NCBI GenBank assembly: GCA_963729715.1
Contig: CAVSPA010000018.1
Span: 16,191-80,190 of the forward strand
Source: an uncultured delta proteobacterium
GTDB lineage: Bacteria; Desulfobacterota; Syntrophia; Syntrophales; UBA2185
Direction: 5' to 3'
DNA length: 64,000 bases
Shown: positions 661-29,882 of the stretch, in pieces
Numbering within the stretch: the stretch's first letter is position 1
Layout: each line of letters opens with the position of its first letter
Program-made: the position numbers and the translations under genes
Notes under the pieces: generated by a model
Databases searched by the model: none
What the model was told of the DNA's origin: nothing
What the model saw: only the letters and a program-made list of their open reading frames with translations

Positions 661-778
661 GGAACTAATGCTTCAGGTTACCCTTTGCACCTCCCTCCAG
701 CTACGTGGGCGAACTACCGAACTCCCACGGTCGGACTTTAACCGACAAGTCATACGTTTTACACGGCATACCCTACGA
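661..778 (-). repeat. Copy 1 of a ~115-nt conserved structured element (group II intron domain-I-like)
   Basis: The reverse complement is near-identical to 27834-27950 and clearly related to 11069-11180. It sits in a ~0.7 kb region (271-935) with no credible ORF. Confidence 0.75.
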
Positions 779-935
779 GCCAGCAACTTCAAAGAGAATT
801 TGTCCTGATGATTACGGCTCGAAATGCATAACAAAAATACCATGCCGACTAGTGTGACGTCTCACTTATAATTTGTATTTATTGTAATAGTAGCCAGCAG
901 ATATCATTCGGCAATTGCCGTATAACTAATTAAAC

Positions 936-1338: not shown

Positions 1339-2013
1339 TCACTTTTTCGGTCCGAAGATTTCCAATGAAATGATTCTCCCGTTCTCCCAACCAACCCTGT
1401 AGACTTGGATGATATCGGCTGGTATTTCGCTAGATGTTGAGCTCGTAATACCCTCGACGGTGTAATAAATTTTGTTGTCGACCTTCTCTGTCTTGATAAC
1501 ATAAGGATCTCTAACTATCAAAAGACCCATGGCCTTGCGTATAATATCCGAGTTTGCGTATTTGCTGATGACTGCCCTGTATCTTTTCTGCGATGTATGA
1601 GCCTGCATGCATTCCTTCATTTCAGGAATAATATCGGCGACAGCAATCCCCTTTTTTGCACCCAGGGGAGTGAAGGATACAATCCTTCTATTTTCCCAGC
1701 ACACCTTATATGTCTGGACGATATCACGCGGAATTTCAGATGCTGTTTCCACCGTGACACCCTCTACAGTGTAACAGATTTTCTGCCCTTCTCGATCCGC
1801 ATTCGTGATATAGGGCTCCTTGATGATCAGAAGTCCCATGGCCTGATTGACAATGGCTGGGTCGGCATATTTCTGTATAACGGACTTGTACTCTTTCTGC
1901 GATCCGTGGGAACGCATGCACTCCCTCATCTCGGGGATAACCTCCATCGCGAAGGCATGACCCCACATTCCAAAGAAAAGATACATTATGAAGCAAATCG
2001 TAGTTCTCTTCAT
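1339..2013 (-). CDS. Exported protein built from two tandem ~95-aa repeats, unknown function
   Basis: Signal peptide MKRTTICFIMYLFFGMWGHAFA with GGAGGTG upstream. Repeat 1 reads IPEMRECMRSHGSQKEYKSVIQKYADPAIVNQAMGLLI..; repeat 2 reads IPEMKECMQAHTSQKRYRAVISKYANSDIIRKAMGLLI.. Confidence 0.7.
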   Translation of the reverse strand: MKRTTICFIMYLFFGMWGHAFAMEVIPEMRECMRSHGSQKEYKSVIQKYADPAIVNQAMGLLIIKEPYITNADREGQKICYTVEGVTVETASEIPRDIVQTYKVCWENRRIVSFTPLGAKKGIAVADIIPEMKECMQAHTSQKRYRAVISKYANSDIIRKAMGLLIVRDPYVIKTEKVDNKIYYTVEGITSSTSSEIPADIIQVYRVGWENGRIISLEIFGPKK

Positions 2014-2056
2014 CTTCGTCCACCTCCACTTAATTCCGTTCATCCAAAATCTTCAC

Positions 2057-7332: not shown

Positions 7333-8694
7333 TCAGTTGCTTTGTTTTGAAAAGAGGTTATGCTTTTTCATCTTCCGCCAGAGAGTTGTTCTGTTCATTT
7401 GGAGTGCTCTGGAGGTTTCGCCCCGTCTCCACCCATGTGCTTTGAGCGCCACGAGGAGCTTCTCTTTTTCATTGAAGGAGGCCCCTTGCTTGGAGACAAT
7501 ATCCACATTGGATGATGAAAACAGCGGGGATGAATTATTTTTCTCAAAAAGATAGAGTGGGAGAAGGTCTTTATCCATTTTTCCGCCTCGGTAAAGGATC
7601 ATGGCGTGTTCAATGATGTTTTTGAGTTCCCGGACATTGCCGGGGTAGGGGTAATTAAGAAGAAGTACCATGAAATCGGATGTAACAATCTTAATTTCCT
7701 TTCCAAGAAGTCTCGCCTGCTCTGCCAAAAAATGATCCACAAGCAGAGGGATGTCCGTAGATCTTTCCCTCAGAGGCGGGATTTCGACCTCGACCACCCT
7801 CAGACGATAATATAAGTCCTGCCGGAAGATCTTTTCCCGGGTCATGTCGGGAAGCTTGCGATTTGTGGAGGTGATGACCCTCACGTCGACAATAACAGGA
7901 CGGGTAGACCCAAGGGGATAGAATTCTTTTTCATCCAGGACCTGTAGAAGCTTGGCTTGGAGGTCGTTGGGAAGCTCACCAATTTCGTCGAGGAAGATGG
8001 TTCCCCCTTCAGCCGTCTGGAATCTTCCAAGCTTATCATGCTTCGCATCGGTAAAGGCACCTTTTTTGTATCCGAAAAGTTCTGATTCGAGTAGTTGCGA
8101 TGGAAGAGCAGCACAGTTGACTTTGATAAAAGGACCATCTCGGCGATGACTGGCATTGTGAACGGCCTTGGCAAAGATGTCTTTGCCGGTCCCCGTTTCA
8201 CCGAGAAGAAGAACAGGGGCATCCGTCGGGGCGACTGTGTTCAGGAGATCGAAGATTCTTAGGATCTTTTCGTCCTTGCCGATGATATCTCCGAAAGAGT
8301 GCAACCCCCGAATCTCCTTTTCTAGGGTGACACGGATCGAGTCATCTTGAAAAGACTCGACACCGCCGATGATCCGCCCCTGATCATCCTGAAGAATCGC
8401 AACAGTGATATCAACGGGGATCTCTTTGTTGTGCCTGTTCAAAATCCTATTCCGGACCTTGACAATCTTGGAGCCGGTCTCCATAGCCATCCTGAGATAG
8501 CACCCCCTCTGGCAGAGTTCGGTCCGGAAGATCTCATAACATTTACGGCCCAAAGCCTCTTTCTTCGAAAAGCCGGTGATCTTCTCCGCTTCTTCGTTGA
8601 AGCAGTTGATATTCCAGCCCATGTCCACGGTGAATATTCCCAAGGCCACACTATTCAGTATTTTCCTGCTATCGAATTCTCTTTTCATAAACAC
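7333..8694 (-). CDS. Sigma-54-dependent transcriptional activator (PAS sensor + AAA+ + C-terminal HTH)
   Basis: Walker A GETGTGKD, the GAFTDA loop (KKGAFTDA) and an ESELFGY-type motif (ESELFGYKKG). The C-terminus reads ..RALQMNRTTLWRKMKKH. Confidence 0.9.
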   Translation of the reverse strand: MFMKREFDSRKILNSVALGIFTVDMGWNINCFNEEAEKITGFSKKEALGRKCYEIFRTELCQRGCYLRMAMETGSKIVKVRNRILNRHNKEIPVDITVAILQDDQGRIIGGVESFQDDSIRVTLEKEIRGLHSFGDIIGKDEKILRIFDLLNTVAPTDAPVLLLGETGTGKDIFAKAVHNASHRRDGPFIKVNCAALPSQLLESELFGYKKGAFTDAKHDKLGRFQTAEGGTIFLDEIGELPNDLQAKLLQVLDEKEFYPLGSTRPVIVDVRVITSTNRKLPDMTREKIFRQDLYYRLRVVEVEIPPLRERSTDIPLLVDHFLAEQARLLGKEIKIVTSDFMVLLLNYPYPGNVRELKNIIEHAMILYRGGKMDKDLLPLYLFEKNNSSPLFSSSNVDIVSKQGASFNEKEKLLVALKAHGWRRGETSRALQMNRTTLWRKMKKHNLFSKQSN

Positions 8695-11068: not shown

Positions 11069-11180
11069 CGTAGGCTGTGCCGTGTAAAACGTTCTCGGTT
11101 AAAGTCTGACCCCGTGGGTTCGGTGGTTCGCCTACATAGCTGGAAGGAAGTGTCAATGGCAGAATTCTAAGTTAACATGC
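11069..11180 (+). repeat. Copy 2 (more diverged) of the ~115-nt conserved structured element
   Basis: CGTAGGCTGTGCCGTGTAAAACG..CGGTTAAAGTCTGA..GTGGGTTCGGTGGTTCGCCTAC..GCTGGAAGGAAGTG. It sits in a ~0.6 kb ORF-poor gap (10728-11333). Confidence 0.7.
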
Positions 11181-27283: not shown

Positions 27284-27766
27284 TTATTTTTGATGAATCC
27301 CGCGACATCCGCAGCCCTGACCCATACGTCTGCGTCCACCCGCAGCGAATCCTCTGTCTTCTTCCGCCCTGTGTATATTTACACTCTGGCAGGAAGGACA
27401 ACCTCTAATTCTCCCTGTTCCATGTGGTACTTCCCAAGTATGCTGACAATCGTAACATTTAAATTTTCTCATGGCGTTCATTTCAAAATTACCTCCTTCA
27501 ATCTTCAACGTTTTTCCTTGAACCAATGTCTCCGCCACCTTATGTCGCGCCGCTTCAATAATCCTTCCGAAAGTCGGCCGTGAGACATTCATCTGTTCTG
27601 CCGCCTTATCGTGGTAAAGCCGGTCAAGATCCGCCAAGCGGATTGCCTCAAACTCATCCATGGATAAGACCACGTGATCAAGCGCGGATGCTGGCACACC
27701 GGCCGGCTTGAAAATTTGGCATACCGGTTCTCCTGCTACTCTCCGACAACATTTTGGCCTCCCCAT
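27284..27766 (-). CDS. DUF134 (UPF0251) predicted DNA-binding protein with a C-terminal zinc-ribbon extension
   Basis: MGRPKCCRRV..FKPAG.......MDEFEAIRLADL...QEEAAxxMxVSRPTF-type pattern, followed by CYDC..CPSC. Confidence 0.8.
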   Translation of the reverse strand: MGRPKCCRRVAGEPVCQIFKPAGVPASALDHVVLSMDEFEAIRLADLDRLYHDKAAEQMNVSRPTFGRIIEAARHKVAETLVQGKTLKIEGGNFEMNAMRKFKCYDCQHTWEVPHGTGRIRGCPSCQSVNIHRAEEDRGFAAGGRRRMGQGCGCRGIHQK

Positions 27767-27833
27767 TCTTCTTTCTCCTGGACGCATTATAAGCATATGC
27801 CCATAACTTGTCAAGTGAAAAAGTAATATTATT

Positions 27834-27950
27834 GTAAGGTATGCCGTGTAAAACGTATGACTAGTCGGTTAAAGTCCGACGGTGGGAGTTCTGTAGTTCG
27901 CCCACGTAGCTGGAGGGAAGTGTTAAGGGTAACCTGAAGCATTAAGTTCC
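27834..27950 (+). repeat. Copy 3 of the ~115-nt conserved structured element (continuous with the intron-like RNA below)
   Basis: GTAAGGTATGCCGTGTAAAACGTATGACTAGTCGGTTAAAGTCCGACGGTGGGAGTTCTGTAGTTCGCCCACGTAGCTGGAGGGAAGTG..AACCTGAAGC. Confidence 0.75.
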
Positions 27951-28520
27951 CTGACAAAGGTTCCTATAGGGAGTCGAGCAAACCTGCGGGTCGCAGCGTG
28001 AGCGAACCTAGATGTAGCCTCAAAAATCACAATGGAGTTGTCGACCCTCTCCTACACAGGGGAAGACCGGAGCATCTATCCTGACGAAAACCACCAGAAC
28101 CGATAGATGGACTTCCGTGGTAACAGGGGTGACACGCAGGGGCAGCCAGACGAGAATGAACGCGGGAGACCCTTGTCGATGCTGCGAGAGCGGCAACTGG
28201 TGGATATAAGGAAACGAAGTTTCACTGGGTCGGCACGGGAGTCGGAGTTGCCCATAGTACCGCTTGTATCTCAAGGACAGCATAACCTTGAGAGAGGAAA
28301 GGGGCAATACCTTCATCATGCTTCTAAAGGAGAGAAGGAAAGGAGATTGCGGTAACGCTATCAACTCCAAAGATTCCAGGAACTCCGGTGGAAGCTATAC
28401 TGGAAGGCCAAGTGAAAGCGAAAGCCTCTGGAAGAAGATGATTGGAAAGCCGTGTGCGGGAAAACTGCATGCACGGTTGTGTGTCCAGCGAAGGCTGGTC
28501 TGTTCAGTAGGAGTCAAACC
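27846..28520 (+). ncRNA. ORF-less group II intron-like ribozyme (5' end tentatively at GTGTA; 3' end not determined)
   Basis: Domain-I-like 5' region, many perfect local helices (for example CATCTATC..GATAGATG) and a canonical domain V at 28448-28478. No RT/maturase ORF lies anywhere in 27815-29205. Confidence 0.5.
28448..28478 (+). ncRNA. Group II intron domain V hairpin
   Basis: AGCCGUGU-GCGG-GAAAA-CUGC-AU-GCACGGUU. It has the AGC triad at the base, an 8-bp lower helix, a 2-nt bulge on the 3' strand, a 4-bp upper helix and a GAAA-type loop. By eye it closely matches the yeast ai5gamma D5, GAGCCGUAUGCGAUGAAAGUCGCACGUACGGUUC. Confidence 0.7.
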
Positions 28521-29205
28521 TGCCAGGGTAAAAGCCAGAGCCCTGTAGCTTGGATAGCAGGGTGGAGGAAAACCAAAATCTTGGAGCCTATTGACACACC
28601 CATCAAAAGGAAGGGAGCGAGTTACCAGGCCGTAACGAGAGTGAACGCAGAGGTGGCCCCGAAAGTTCGAAGCCTCGGAAGCAGAGCTGGAGCTCACTAT
28701 CAGTGGAACCACGCTTATTTGGAGGTTTCGTTTTACATGGGCCTCACCTGAGGTACAAATGCCTCGCCCGATCGCGACATGGAAGGAATTTGACCCTTCG
28801 CAAATCATAGGACGCGAAGCTACCAGTAGAACATCCGGACATAGCAAATTTACTATCAGCGAAGACGGCAGCAGCATAACCGAGAATGGTGCAGACGGCA
28901 CTTTCACGTACTACCGTCAGTAAAGGCAAGGGTTTCGGAGTCTGTGCTTGGGGCCGAACTTTGCGTTGGTTTGAAATGGCAATGCCCTGTGTTCAGCCCC
29001 ATGGCTGACACAATAGTTGTGGGTGCCACTATTAACGGATCTCTTTCATATTTTGATTCATCTTTCTCACGCAGTACGGGTTGAAACACGCGAAGGCTCG
29101 AAAGCTTATTTTCAGTTCGCATAAAATCCGGCTGCCTTCCTTGTTTGACATGCCTATCAGGACATTGTAGAGTTTAAGTCATAATACTTCCATGGAGGTG
29201 CCACG

Positions 29206-29811
29206 GTGGAATTATCAGAAGTTATCGCTTCACGGCGAAGCATTCGTAAATTCAGACAGCAGGATATTTCGGCTGACACTATCCGCCTGCTGCTCGAGGC
29301 TGCGCGGCTTGCCCCTTCGGGATCAAACCTCCAGCCCTGGCGCTTTATCATTGCTCAATCACCTGCCGCCAAAGAGGCCCTTGGCCGATGTACGCCCTAT
29401 AAGTTTATAGTCAAGGCAGCGGCTATTTTTGTATGCTGCGCCGACCTGACGGCCATGACAACAAGAGAGCGTCGTCTCGGAGAACTGGTGCAAGAAGGCG
29501 CCTTCGAAGGTGTGGATATAGATATGAATGATGCATCAATCACAGCCAGCCCTATCGTGGACGCGGAAACGGTTAAGGCCTATCTTTCCATGAATGTGGC
29601 GATAGCTGTAGAGCACATCGCCCTTAAGACCGTCGATCTGGGTCTGGGCAGTTGCTGGCTTGCAAGGTTTGATCGCGATAAGGTAAAGGAATATCTGGCG
29701 CTAAACGAAAGTATCCACCCGGTAGTGCTTTTGCCCGTAGGTCATCCCGATCAGTCACCCAAAGCAAGACCGCGCTTTGCTTTGGACAAGTTGGTGCTGA
29801 AGATAATCTAA
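29206..29811 (+). CDS. Nitroreductase-family protein
   Basis: ..IASRRSIRKF........LLEAARLAPSGSNLQPWRF.. The start is GTG after GGAGGTG. Confidence 0.85.
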   Translation: MELSEVIASRRSIRKFRQQDISADTIRLLLEAARLAPSGSNLQPWRFIIAQSPAAKEALGRCTPYKFIVKAAAIFVCCADLTAMTTRERRLGELVQEGAFEGVDIDMNDASITASPIVDAETVKAYLSMNVAIAVEHIALKTVDLGLGSCWLARFDRDKVKEYLALNESIHPVVLLPVGHPDQSPKARPRFALDKLVLKII

Positions 29812-29882
29812 GCAAGTACCGAGCTTCGGGGACATCATCCGGGCATGCTTCTCCCAGGAATGATGAATAGGGGATAACTATT

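Follow-up and report, generated by a model that had tools for sequence, protein, structure and literature searches.

The question raised by this locus is what occupies the 1.4-kb non-coding block that lies between a DUF134-like gene and a nitroreductase gene. An earlier note on the window (the whole 64-kb stretch of DNA analysed here) had read the block as an ORF-less group II intron-like RNA, possibly part of a larger structured RNA, and its observation that the block contains no credible ORF agrees with our ORF inspection and Pfam searches. We find that the block is a mobile-element relic of a known kind and not a new RNA class. With a probability of about 0.82, it is a decayed, truncated twintron, consisting of an ORF-less outer group II intron and a clipped inner intron. 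On the plus strand, domains I-V of the outer intron (27839-28478) are followed by nucleotides 1-210 of the inner intron (28479-28688) and then by unrelated DNA. The earlier description therefore holds for domain I, domain V and the domain IV stub, which are genuine, but not for an intact intron, since what remains is a truncated relic. The outer intron retains the following parts:

27839-28165, plus strand: outer domain I, which starts with GUAUGCC and holds the EBS1 loop (Rfam group-II-D1D4-4 and RNAalifold)
28166-28243, plus strand: outer domain II, with a 13-bp basal helix (28166-28180/28229-28243)
28244-28312, plus strand: outer domain III, with the helix 28244-28253/28302-28311
28313-28441, plus strand: outer domain IV stub, with the ORF-deletion junction between 28412 and 28413
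28448-28478, plus strand: outer domain V, with AGC triad, AU bulge and GAAAA loop, the last surviving outer part (HMM position 640)

The family HMM matches 27839-28478 over HMM positions 1-640 (E=5e-222), and Rfam group-II-D1D4-4 (RF02003) matches 27862-28001 with 84.1 bits (E=6e-17; gathering score 49), in line with the domain-I-like segment recognized before. Domain I is closed by the helices 27844-27849/28160-28165. The domain V architecture proposed for 28448-28478 is present, with the AGC triad, a U.G pair and after it the 2-nt AU bulge, and the GAAAA loop. About 35 relatives have a homologous domain V, and the comparison shows compensatory changes from A-U to G-C and from U-A to G-C. Rfam Intron_gpII matches domain V of the window with 34.1 bits (E=2e-4 in a 2-kb search), a score kept below the gathering score of 40 only by the missing domain VI; the complete relatives pass the gathering score (42.8-48.7 bits). 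Using our own alignment and the RNAalifold structure obtained from it, so that the counts lean somewhat towards that structure, we found 87, 27, 18 and 9 pairs in domains I, II, III and V, which are 99%, 97%, 98% and 99% paired and include 10, 14, 3 and 4 pairs changed on both sides, respectively. The consensus fold of domains I-V is thus 97-99% paired, compared with 19-70% in slid controls, and 42 of its pairs are changed on both sides, compared with at most 4 per domain in the controls. The copy in the window breaks 4 of 168 pairs, a number inside the range of 0-7 seen in the family.

The 5' end of the element had been placed at GUGUA (27846). The true start is 7 nt upstream, at 27839, which is also position 1 of the family HMM. 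Covariation between IBS1 (27834-27838) and EBS1 (28051-28055) fixes the 5' splice site at 27838/27839, and the intron opens with GUAUG. Two features flank this site:

27834-27838, plus strand: IBS1, the last 5 nt of the 5' exon, GUAAG here and GUAGG in the family consensus
27786-27814, minus strand: sigma-70-type promoter of the divergent DUF134-like gene (perfect TTGACA-17-TATAAT), about 25 nt from the intron 5' end

The EBS1 loop, CCUAC, lies inside outer domain I and was located by mutual information. Across 55 copies, IBS1 and EBS1 pair at 90.2%, compared with 67.2% in shuffles (0 of 500 reach the observed value), and all five pairs show changes on both sides; in the window's own copy, four of the five positions pair and one is an A.C mismatch. 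The segment at 28303-28313, formerly taken for the EBS, forms the 3' side of the basal helix of domain III. We also considered whether the 12 nt preceding GUGUA were a target site carried with the element; they are really 7 nt of the intron plus the 5 nt of IBS1. A weak promoter-like site (TTGTCA-16-TATTGT, 27808-27835) is seen just upstream of the intron.

Related copies are found at 83 loci (numbered with the prefix L below) in Syntrophales, Smithella, Thermodesulfovibrionales and Nitrospirota MAGs, and one full-length copy (L043) lies on a contig binned as Methanosarcina. The suggestion of a larger structured RNA gives way to these relatives: the outer element is one of the ordinary members of a mobile family in which the full-length introns, such as L024 in Smithella SPRUCE 404, encode an RT/maturase. 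The ORF of about 1.24 kb in the full-length relatives lies exactly at the position of the domain IV stub in the window, and the same anchors that enclose 1274-1287 nt in those copies enclose 43 nt here, so that domain IV is only a stub, as had been noted. BLAST homology breaks at 28412/28414, and about 25 N-terminal RT codons are left only as DNA homology ending at 28412. The same 43-nt stub is found in 10 other copies from 7 MAGs with different flanks, which points to the spread of a single ORF-deleted lineage like that of Thermosynechococcus elongatus. Full-length and ORF-less copies also occur within one MAG (MFD09779.bin.2.135, with L051 full-length and L002 ORF-less). TIGR04416 recognizes the RT/maturases of full-length relatives with 406 and 370 bits, and tblastn with the outer and inner RT/maturases finds no RT or RT pseudogene in the 64-kb window (best E 0.49), consistent with the earlier remark that no RT/maturase remnant is visible. 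The earlier note had also set its intron against a decayed fragment with a detectable RT pseudogene; a decayed fragment is in substance what the locus holds, although the pseudogene is absent.

The family RT/maturase is closest to the solved IIC RTs, a comparison in which classes D-F have no solved structures, and our literature search found no assignment of Rfam D1D4-4 to a named intron class. Targeting of the class IIC type appears doubtful for this family: hairpin stability just upstream of 80 insertion sites shows no excess over control windows, and a conserved terminator-like hairpin precedes some family copies by 64-84 nt. The 5' module had been reported to occur twice elsewhere in the window, and the family HMM recovers both occurrences:

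661-771, minus strand: outer-family 5' fragment (HMM positions 1-112), with IBS1 GUAGG and an upstream GTAATC leader motif
11078-11161, plus strand: second, more diverged outer-family 5' fragment (HMM positions 4-93)

The rest of the intron is absent at 661-771. The pattern used for collecting copies favoured 5' ends, and the apparent excess of 5' fragments in the family is discounted.

The sequence behind domain V explains why the outer intron is incomplete. The 650 nt or so that follow it had been described as additional ORF-free sequence; they are ORF-free, but the first 210 nt are the 5' end of a second intron:

28479-28688, plus strand: inner group II intron, first 210 nt (5' part of domain I), which begins with GUGUG (Rfam D1D4-4 and HMM)

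The inner intron starts at 28479, directly abutting the last base of domain V, which is the DV/DVI junction of the outer intron. Rfam D1D4-4 matches the inner module at 28505-28640 with 104.1 bits, above the 84.1 bits of the outer module, and the inner-intron HMM is matched only at positions 1-211 (E=1e-51). Canonical copies of the outer family continue after domain V with UGAUGAGGGGGAGCUGG...CUCUACUCUAC (domain VI), while the window and L002, L030, L034, L039 and L051 have GUGYGUCCAGCRAAGGCUGG instead, so that the same twintron junction occurs in five other loci besides the window. The inner part is 78-82% identical to the complete or partial inner intron 5' ends of these five loci. L002 and L051 are complete twintrons, in which outer domain V is followed by a 1.94-kb inner intron with an RT and then by outer domain VI. 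In the window, by contrast with these two, the outer intron is not seen to resume past the inner one, and outer domain VI (HMM positions 641-697) has no match anywhere in the 64 kb. Insertion of the inner intron at the DV/DVI junction, an arrangement seen intact elsewhere, and subsequent truncation account for the missing domain VI.

These data also bear on whether the locus is an intact ORF-less intron that still splices through a cryptic domain VI or 3' splice site within 28479-29205. A small GNRA hairpin (CCAGC-GAAG-GCUGG, 28485-28498) right behind domain V, with ORF-free sequence after it, would suit such an intron, but this hairpin belongs to the inner intron's 5' end, and complete inner introns conserve it. 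No second domain V or VI is found in 28479-29205 (Rfam at E<=10 and motif scan), the family domain VI is missing window-wide and 28689-29135 carries no fold signal, which makes continued splicing extremely improbable. A circularly permuted intron was rejected as well, as the downstream domain I is that of another intron, whose complete copies show the normal domain order. Circularly permuted group II introns (bioRxiv 10.64898/2025.12.30.696962) share with the locus a domain V immediately upstream of a domain I, but the window has no domain VI and no exon between domain V and the downstream domain I.

Homology to the inner intron ends at 28688 in the window, and the alignments to the five inner introns all stop at 28656-28688. 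At inner positions 215-220, L002 and L034 have AACCGU, complementary to the outer domain V end ACGGUU, and the window's inner copy is cut 5 nt short of its EBS1 loop. Beyond this point, the following features are found:

28689-29135, no strand assigned: orphan spacer outside both introns, with no match found
29145-29173, plus strand: nitroreductase promoter-like site (TTGACA-17-TAGAGT), which marks the return of conserved sequence

Searches of the spacer against 163 loci with BLASTN and nhmmer revealed no homologues, Rfam at E<=10 returned only a spurious miRNA match, and Pfam on all its ORFs returned nothing. Its folding energy shows no excess (MFE z-score +0.23), and exact-protein look-ups of a 54-aa ORF and of both flanking genes were negative. 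We compared the nitroreductase flank with 49 close orthologues, taken from 80 metagenome loci returned. Most of these 49 loci align only from about 29136-29144, and one reaches 29077; synteny breaks off near 29136, without shared neighbouring genes. No empty orthologous locus representing the state before insertion was found among them, because synteny is broken on both sides.

An assembly artefact would offer another explanation for the break, in which the real twintron is complete and 28688/28689, perhaps together with the two short 5' fragments, represents chimeric joins from a high-copy repeat in a metagenome assembly, which is the probable source of the window. Many family copies lie at MAG contig ends, so the repeat does break assemblies, and both the end of nitroreductase synteny near 29136 and the lack of common neighbouring genes would fit. 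However, chimeric joins normally fall inside a shared repeat, and here the break is followed by unique sequence (28689-29135) that has no match among the introns and loci. The window also runs for more than 25 kb on each side, and 5' fragments with varied end points occur inside long contigs of other MAGs. We regard an artefact as improbable and favour a real truncation of the twintron.

The sequence data establish the family membership, the splice site, the ORF-deletion and twintron junctions and the point of truncation, and for the truncated twintron we infer an order of events with three steps. First, a non-autonomous, ORF-deleted member of the family, a family that belongs to Rfam D1D4-4 and has an endonuclease-less RT/maturase, probably retrohomed to a site ending in GUAAG that paired with its EBS1 CCUAC. 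Second, a distantly related group II intron would have homed exactly between outer domain V and domain VI, its EBS1 AACCGU presumably pairing with the 3' strand of outer domain V (ACGGUU). Third, a later deletion or rearrangement would have taken away everything from inner-intron position 211 on, with the probable loss of the inner RT gene, inner domains V-VI, outer domain VI and the 3' splice site. This deletion is deduced rather than seen, because 28689-29135 has no match that would explain its source.

Lacking a branch-point domain, a 3' splice site and an RT, the element in the window is unable to splice conventionally or to move, and it is probably a relic without function. If it is transcribed, folding and hydrolysis of its own 5' junction are the most that its DI-DV core could achieve; constructs of D1 and D5 are known to carry out this hydrolysis in vitro. 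The core is hardly degraded, being 96% identical to the complete copy L006 with the 4 broken pairs mentioned above, and therefore either the truncation is recent or the core has been retained for some reason.

Such retention would be expected if the DI-DV core were kept as a working protein-free ribozyme, acting either like HYER as a hydrolytic endonuclease or as one half, the 5' one, of a trans-splicing system, in which the intron would be split and a partner bearing domain VI could lie elsewhere. The near-intact core, the conserved AGC triad and bulge, and the compensatory changes in domain V are compatible with this proposal, as are the weak promoter-like site just upstream and the ORF-less length of 640 nt, close to the 637 nt given for HYER1 in PMC12990946. 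Against it, HYERs are described as class IIC elements with D5-D6 (PMC11754743; bioRxiv 10.64898/2025.12.30.696962), and the window copy has no domain VI; nor do the family's insertion sites show upstream-hairpin enrichment of the IIC kind. The arrangement also occurs at this locus only, the truncated form having no conserved homologue, and the absence of domain VI is accounted for by an inner-intron insertion that is seen intact elsewhere. Judged from sequence features of this kind, a retained ribozyme appears very improbable.

The truncated twintron can be compared with known systems. In T. elongatus, the ORF-less TeI3/TeI4 lineages have a single breakpoint, are mobilised in trans and form twintrons (Mohr, Ghanem & Lambowitz 2010, PMC2882425). 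The present family resembles them (PMC2882425) in that its ORF-less copies share one domain IV breakpoint with remnants of the RT N- and C-termini, occupy many sites with EBS sequences diverged to suit different targets, and have full-length RT-encoding relatives that could mobilise them in trans; twintrons, which form there by homing into another intron, probably have the same origin here. In T. elongatus, however, the inner intron is ORF-less and lies in the outer RT ORF (PMC2882425), whereas here it is the inner intron that carries the RT, and the outer intron that holds it at the DV/DVI junction is often ORF-less. The family of T. elongatus is confined to one genome, while the present one is found in MAGs assigned to at least two phyla, and, unlike the T. 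elongatus introns, the window copy is truncated and cannot function.

The nested introns of Methanosarcina acetivorans, balanced by deletions (Dai & Zimmerly 2003, as summarized in PMC4424553), offer a second parallel. According to the same review, they form intergenic arrays that home site-specifically into other introns, and they include ORF-less members and copies eroded by deletion, as in the present family. Their homing sites, as cited in the review, lie within intron ORFs, whereas the site here lies between domains V and VI. The resemblance to HYER (Liu et al. 2024, Science; covered in PMC12990946 and PMC11754743) lies in the lack of an ORF, the length of about 640 nt and the intact catalytic domain V. 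Unlike HYER, which those sources describe as class IIC with D5-D6 kept, the window element lacks domain VI. It also differs from HYER in having a 5-bp covarying EBS1-IBS1 pairing and in being a truncated copy from a family with RT-encoding members.

For annotation, these results turn a 1.4-kb non-coding "mystery" block into mobile-element debris with exact boundaries. ORF-less introns are considered rare in bacteria (PMC4424553), and a single-breakpoint, ORF-deleted group II intron lineage that extends across Desulfobacterota (Syntrophales) and Nitrospirota MAGs is of modest interest. Target specificity in this family has diversified through co-variation of EBS1 and IBS1, and the DV/DVI junction of the first intron probably serves as the homing site of the second. 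Without introducing a new principle, these three points carry the pictures drawn for T. elongatus and M. acetivorans over to soil and peat bacteria that are anaerobic. In L002, L034 and L039, moreover, an ORF-less outer intron bears an intact, RT-encoding inner intron at its DV/DVI junction. It is conceivable, though improbable, that the inner intron supplies RT for the outer one in a functional partnership, of which the window would then hold a broken example.

The block is very probably a twintron relic, in which an ORF-less outer group II intron (DI-DV, 27839-28478, plus strand) is followed by the first 210 nt of a second, inner intron and then by unrelated DNA. It lies between a DUF134-like gene on the minus strand and a nitroreductase gene on the plus strand (GTG start at 29206), and the ORF listing and Pfam agree with the earlier note that no credible ORF separates them. 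Rfam group-II-D1D4-4 has two plus-strand matches above the gathering threshold, at 27862-28001 (84.1 bits) and 28505-28640 (104.1 bits); the latter, a second domain I module that outscores the first and was overlooked by the earlier reader, starts directly 3' of domain V. In a permissive Rfam scan, Intron_gpII aligns to the domain V hairpin at 28445-28482 with 34.1 bits (gathering score 40), and the domain VI half of the model is spread across unrelated sequence. The domain V hairpin proposed earlier is confirmed, with the AGC triad, U.G pair, AU bulge and GAAAA loop all present, as is the recurrence of the 5' module at two other places in the window: the first ~105 nt at 764-661 (minus strand, 93% identity), and 11095-11159 (plus strand, 80%). 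These belong to two 3'-truncated 5' fragments of the outer-intron family in intergenic DNA, 661-771 (minus) and 11078-11161 (plus). Comparable internal fragments occur in other MAGs, with end points at model positions 45-157; because the search pattern favoured 5' ends, an excess of 5' fragments in the family cannot be claimed.

Relatives were collected by the pattern scan GTGTAAAACGN{2,12}CGGTTAAAGTC, with one genome per species. The scan gave 83 loci (L-numbers below). Nearly all come from MAGs of Syntrophales/Smithella, other 'delta proteobacteria', Thermodesulfovibrionales and Nitrospirota; a MAG often holds several of them, and they are frequently found at contig ends. BLAST against the window shows two forms. 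Full-length copies match 27838-28412, carry ~1,240 extra nt and then match 28414-28478, while ORF-less copies align to the window without a break (L006, 96% identity across 645 nt). The extra segment codes for a protein of ~440 aa that lacks an endonuclease domain and matches TIGR04416 (group II intron RT/maturase) with 406 bits (cut-off 300); its nearest solved structures are the class IIC RTs 7uim (4.7e-63) and 6ar1 (5.9e-62), and T.el4h and LtrA are poorer matches. In agreement with the earlier claim that no RT is present, tblastn with both the outer and inner RT/maturases found neither a match nor an RT pseudogene in the 64-kb window.

Measured between fixed anchors, the window shares one 43-nt domain IV stub with ten other copies in seven MAGs (consensus YGGAAGGCCAAGYGAAAGCGAAWGCCUCUGGAAGAAGAUGAUU). 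The insert is longer in fourteen other copies (223 nt in L049, 1274-1287 nt in the remaining 13). Separate, differing deletions are seen in L049, L056 (50 nt) and L057 (15 nt). The shared stub is the signature of a single ORF-deleted lineage that later spread, as shown experimentally for the T. elongatus TeI3 introns (PMC2882425). The stub copies (L006, L011, L030, L034, L039, L047, L064, L069, L075 and L077) are in MAGs labelled Syntrophales, Desulfobacteraceae, 'delta proteobacterium' and Nitrospirota, which implies horizontal spread of this ORF-less lineage. The ORF-less copies L011 and L075 lie on one contig (CAVQCU010000056.1) in opposite orientation, with almost the same 17 nt upstream (GTGTTTATTACGGAT) and an exon CGGAU that does not match their own EBS1 AAUGG, suggesting that a segment was duplicated in inverted orientation or that the insertion was ectopic. 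The full-length copy L043 (JADGNM010000241.1, binned as Methanosarcina sp.) is identical in DV-DVI to L008 from a Syntrophaceae MAG and has a different insertion site; either a bacteria-to-archaea transfer occurred or the 4.8-kb contig is mis-binned.

The 5' splice site was located by covariation. The ~12 nt upstream of GUGUA are common to all copies, and this 12-mer was not found away from an intron copy in ~500 kb of loci. Across 45 copies, mutual information links 27834-27838 with 28055-28051 in antiparallel register. On an independent MAFFT alignment (A1, 55 copies), 90.2% of cells in this helix are paired, compared with 67.2% in shuffles (0/500 reach the observed value) and 34-56% in slid registers; 5/5 pairs change on both sides, and the covariation score is 0.586 versus 0.210 in shuffles. 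Matched IBS1/EBS1 variants include GUAGG/CCUAC, CUGUG/CACAG, CCAUU/AAUGG, CUUGG/CCAAG, UCAGU/ACUGA and CUGAU/AUCAG. This helix is the IBS1-EBS1 pairing, which places the 5' splice site between 27838 and 27839, with the intron beginning GUAUGCC, and not at GUGUA as first proposed. The window IBS1 GUAAG pairs with its EBS1 CCUAC at 4/5 positions. The segment 28303-28313, formerly taken for the EBS, forms the 3' side of the basal DIII helix in the consensus fold.

Domains of the outer intron (RNAalifold, 25 family members)
27844-28165, plus strand, DI, with EBS1 in a terminal loop
28166-28243, plus strand, DII
28244-28311, plus strand, DIII
28313-28441, plus strand, DIV
28448-28478, plus strand, DV

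Standard pairs make up 97-99% of each domain, and 42 pairs in DI-DV change on both sides, with 19-70% pairing in slid controls. The window copy has 4/168 broken pairs, within the family range of 0-7, indicating that its core is not degraded.

Many outer-intron copies (L012, L044, L057, L067, L072, L076, L077) follow a conserved leader, also seen at window 772-840 (minus strand). It consists of a terminator-like hairpin GGCAGGGTCAGAAATGGCTCTGCC with a T-run 64-84 nt upstream of the 5' splice site, a GGTAATCCTCAG-like motif ~45 nt before it, yTGnrGAyTw and IBS1. Unrelated genes precede the hairpin at the different loci, and a small intergenic repeat may be the homing target of the family. L068 at ~1937-2050 (plus) has the hairpin, a leader-like motif and ...CTCTTTGGTAGG abutting TGCACTCC without an intron; its 3' side starts with TG, like occupied sites, and it looks like an unoccupied homing site.

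In canonical copies, which score above the Intron_gpII gathering score (42.8-48.7 bits), domain V is followed by UGAUGAGGGGGAGCUGGAGAUAG...ACUACGCCAGCUCUCUACUCUAC, a domain VI with a bulged A, beyond which the flanks diverge. In the window, L002, L030, L034, L039 and L051, domain V is followed directly by GUGYGUCCAGCRAAGGCUGG, with which another D1D4-4 intron begins. This inner intron is complete in L002 and L051 (1.94 kb): it encodes an RT/maturase (370 bits) and has both a domain V of its own and a domain VI with GACCCUAC at its end. Directly after it come the domain VI and 3' end of the outer intron. The hexamer AACCGU at inner positions 215-220 corresponds in relative position to the outer EBS1, and its complement ACGGUU ends the outer domain V. 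The L002/L051 arrangement is a twintron, which would have arisen by homing into the DV/DVI junction. In L034 (reverse complement, 7785-7870), the inner intron is followed by a different DVI-like 3' end (CCGUGGGAGCGUAGGGGUGAAAUUCCCCUGCG...CGACUCYUCA), also seen ~35-45 nt before outer-intron copies in L024 (2400-2517) and L045 (1600-1711), which suggests either another variant of domain VI or a third intron type present in tandem/nested arrays.

In the window, inner-intron homology covers only positions 1-211 (28479-28688, E=1e-51) and ends abruptly in all comparisons, and the outer family's domain VI was not found anywhere in the window. An assembly mis-join is an unlikely alternative to the relic, and a still intact intron whose 3' end is cryptic is a very remote prospect. 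Lacking domain VI, a 3' splice site and an RT, the block cannot splice conventionally or move. D1 and D5 are enough for 5'-junction hydrolysis by group II ribozymes in vitro, so a transcript of the block could fold and perhaps be cut between 27838 and 27839. Nothing suggests that the block uses such cutting, and a retained ribozyme, HYER-like or trans-acting, is quite improbable.

The 517 nt after the inner-intron remnant comprise 28689-29135 and a stretch conserved from ~29136. The former has no match among 163 fetched loci or in Rfam and Pfam, and no excess folding (z=+0.23); the purine skew typical of the intron strand fades by ~28900. This spacer holds a 54-aa ATG ORF (28759-28923, plus) with AGGT 4-5 nt upstream, no Pfam match and no record in the protein collection. 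Most metagenome nitroreductase orthologues align with the window from ~29136 on, and the gene and its promoter form a conserved island (~29136 to ~29815-29860; 70-89% amino-acid identity, 49 metagenome loci). Neither flank of the island is syntenic with the window, indicating that the locus was rearranged in the source genome. Neither DUF134 nor other window neighbours are shared with the orthologue loci, so that these do not show the ancestral state of the locus.

Promoter-like sites around the block
27814-27786, minus strand, DUF134 gene promoter, perfect TTGACA-17-TATAAT
27808-27835, plus strand, weak site TTGTCA-16-TATTGT adjoining the intron start
29145-29173, plus strand, TTGACA-17-TAGAGT within the nitroreductase-conserved stretch

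No terminator-like site was found in 27600-29300. The near-palindrome TTGTCAA at 27808-27814 supplies the DUF134 -35 box (TTGACA, minus) and also a -35-like box that points towards the intron on the plus strand; some other copies, e.g., L039 and L057, have TTGACAA/TTGTCAA at this distance too. The flank of the intron element may have contributed the DUF134 promoter.

Earlier work (PMC4424553, PMC2882425) already documents ORF-less bacterial introns that coexist with RT-encoding relatives, ORF-less lineages with a single breakpoint, EBS sequences that have diverged into target families, twintrons, and nested arrays that deletions have eroded. Unlike those systems, the homing site here is the DV/DVI junction, an RT-bearing inner intron lies within an ORF-less outer intron, and the family is spread over MAGs assigned to two phyla. 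The window element itself is a broken copy belonging to a known type of element.
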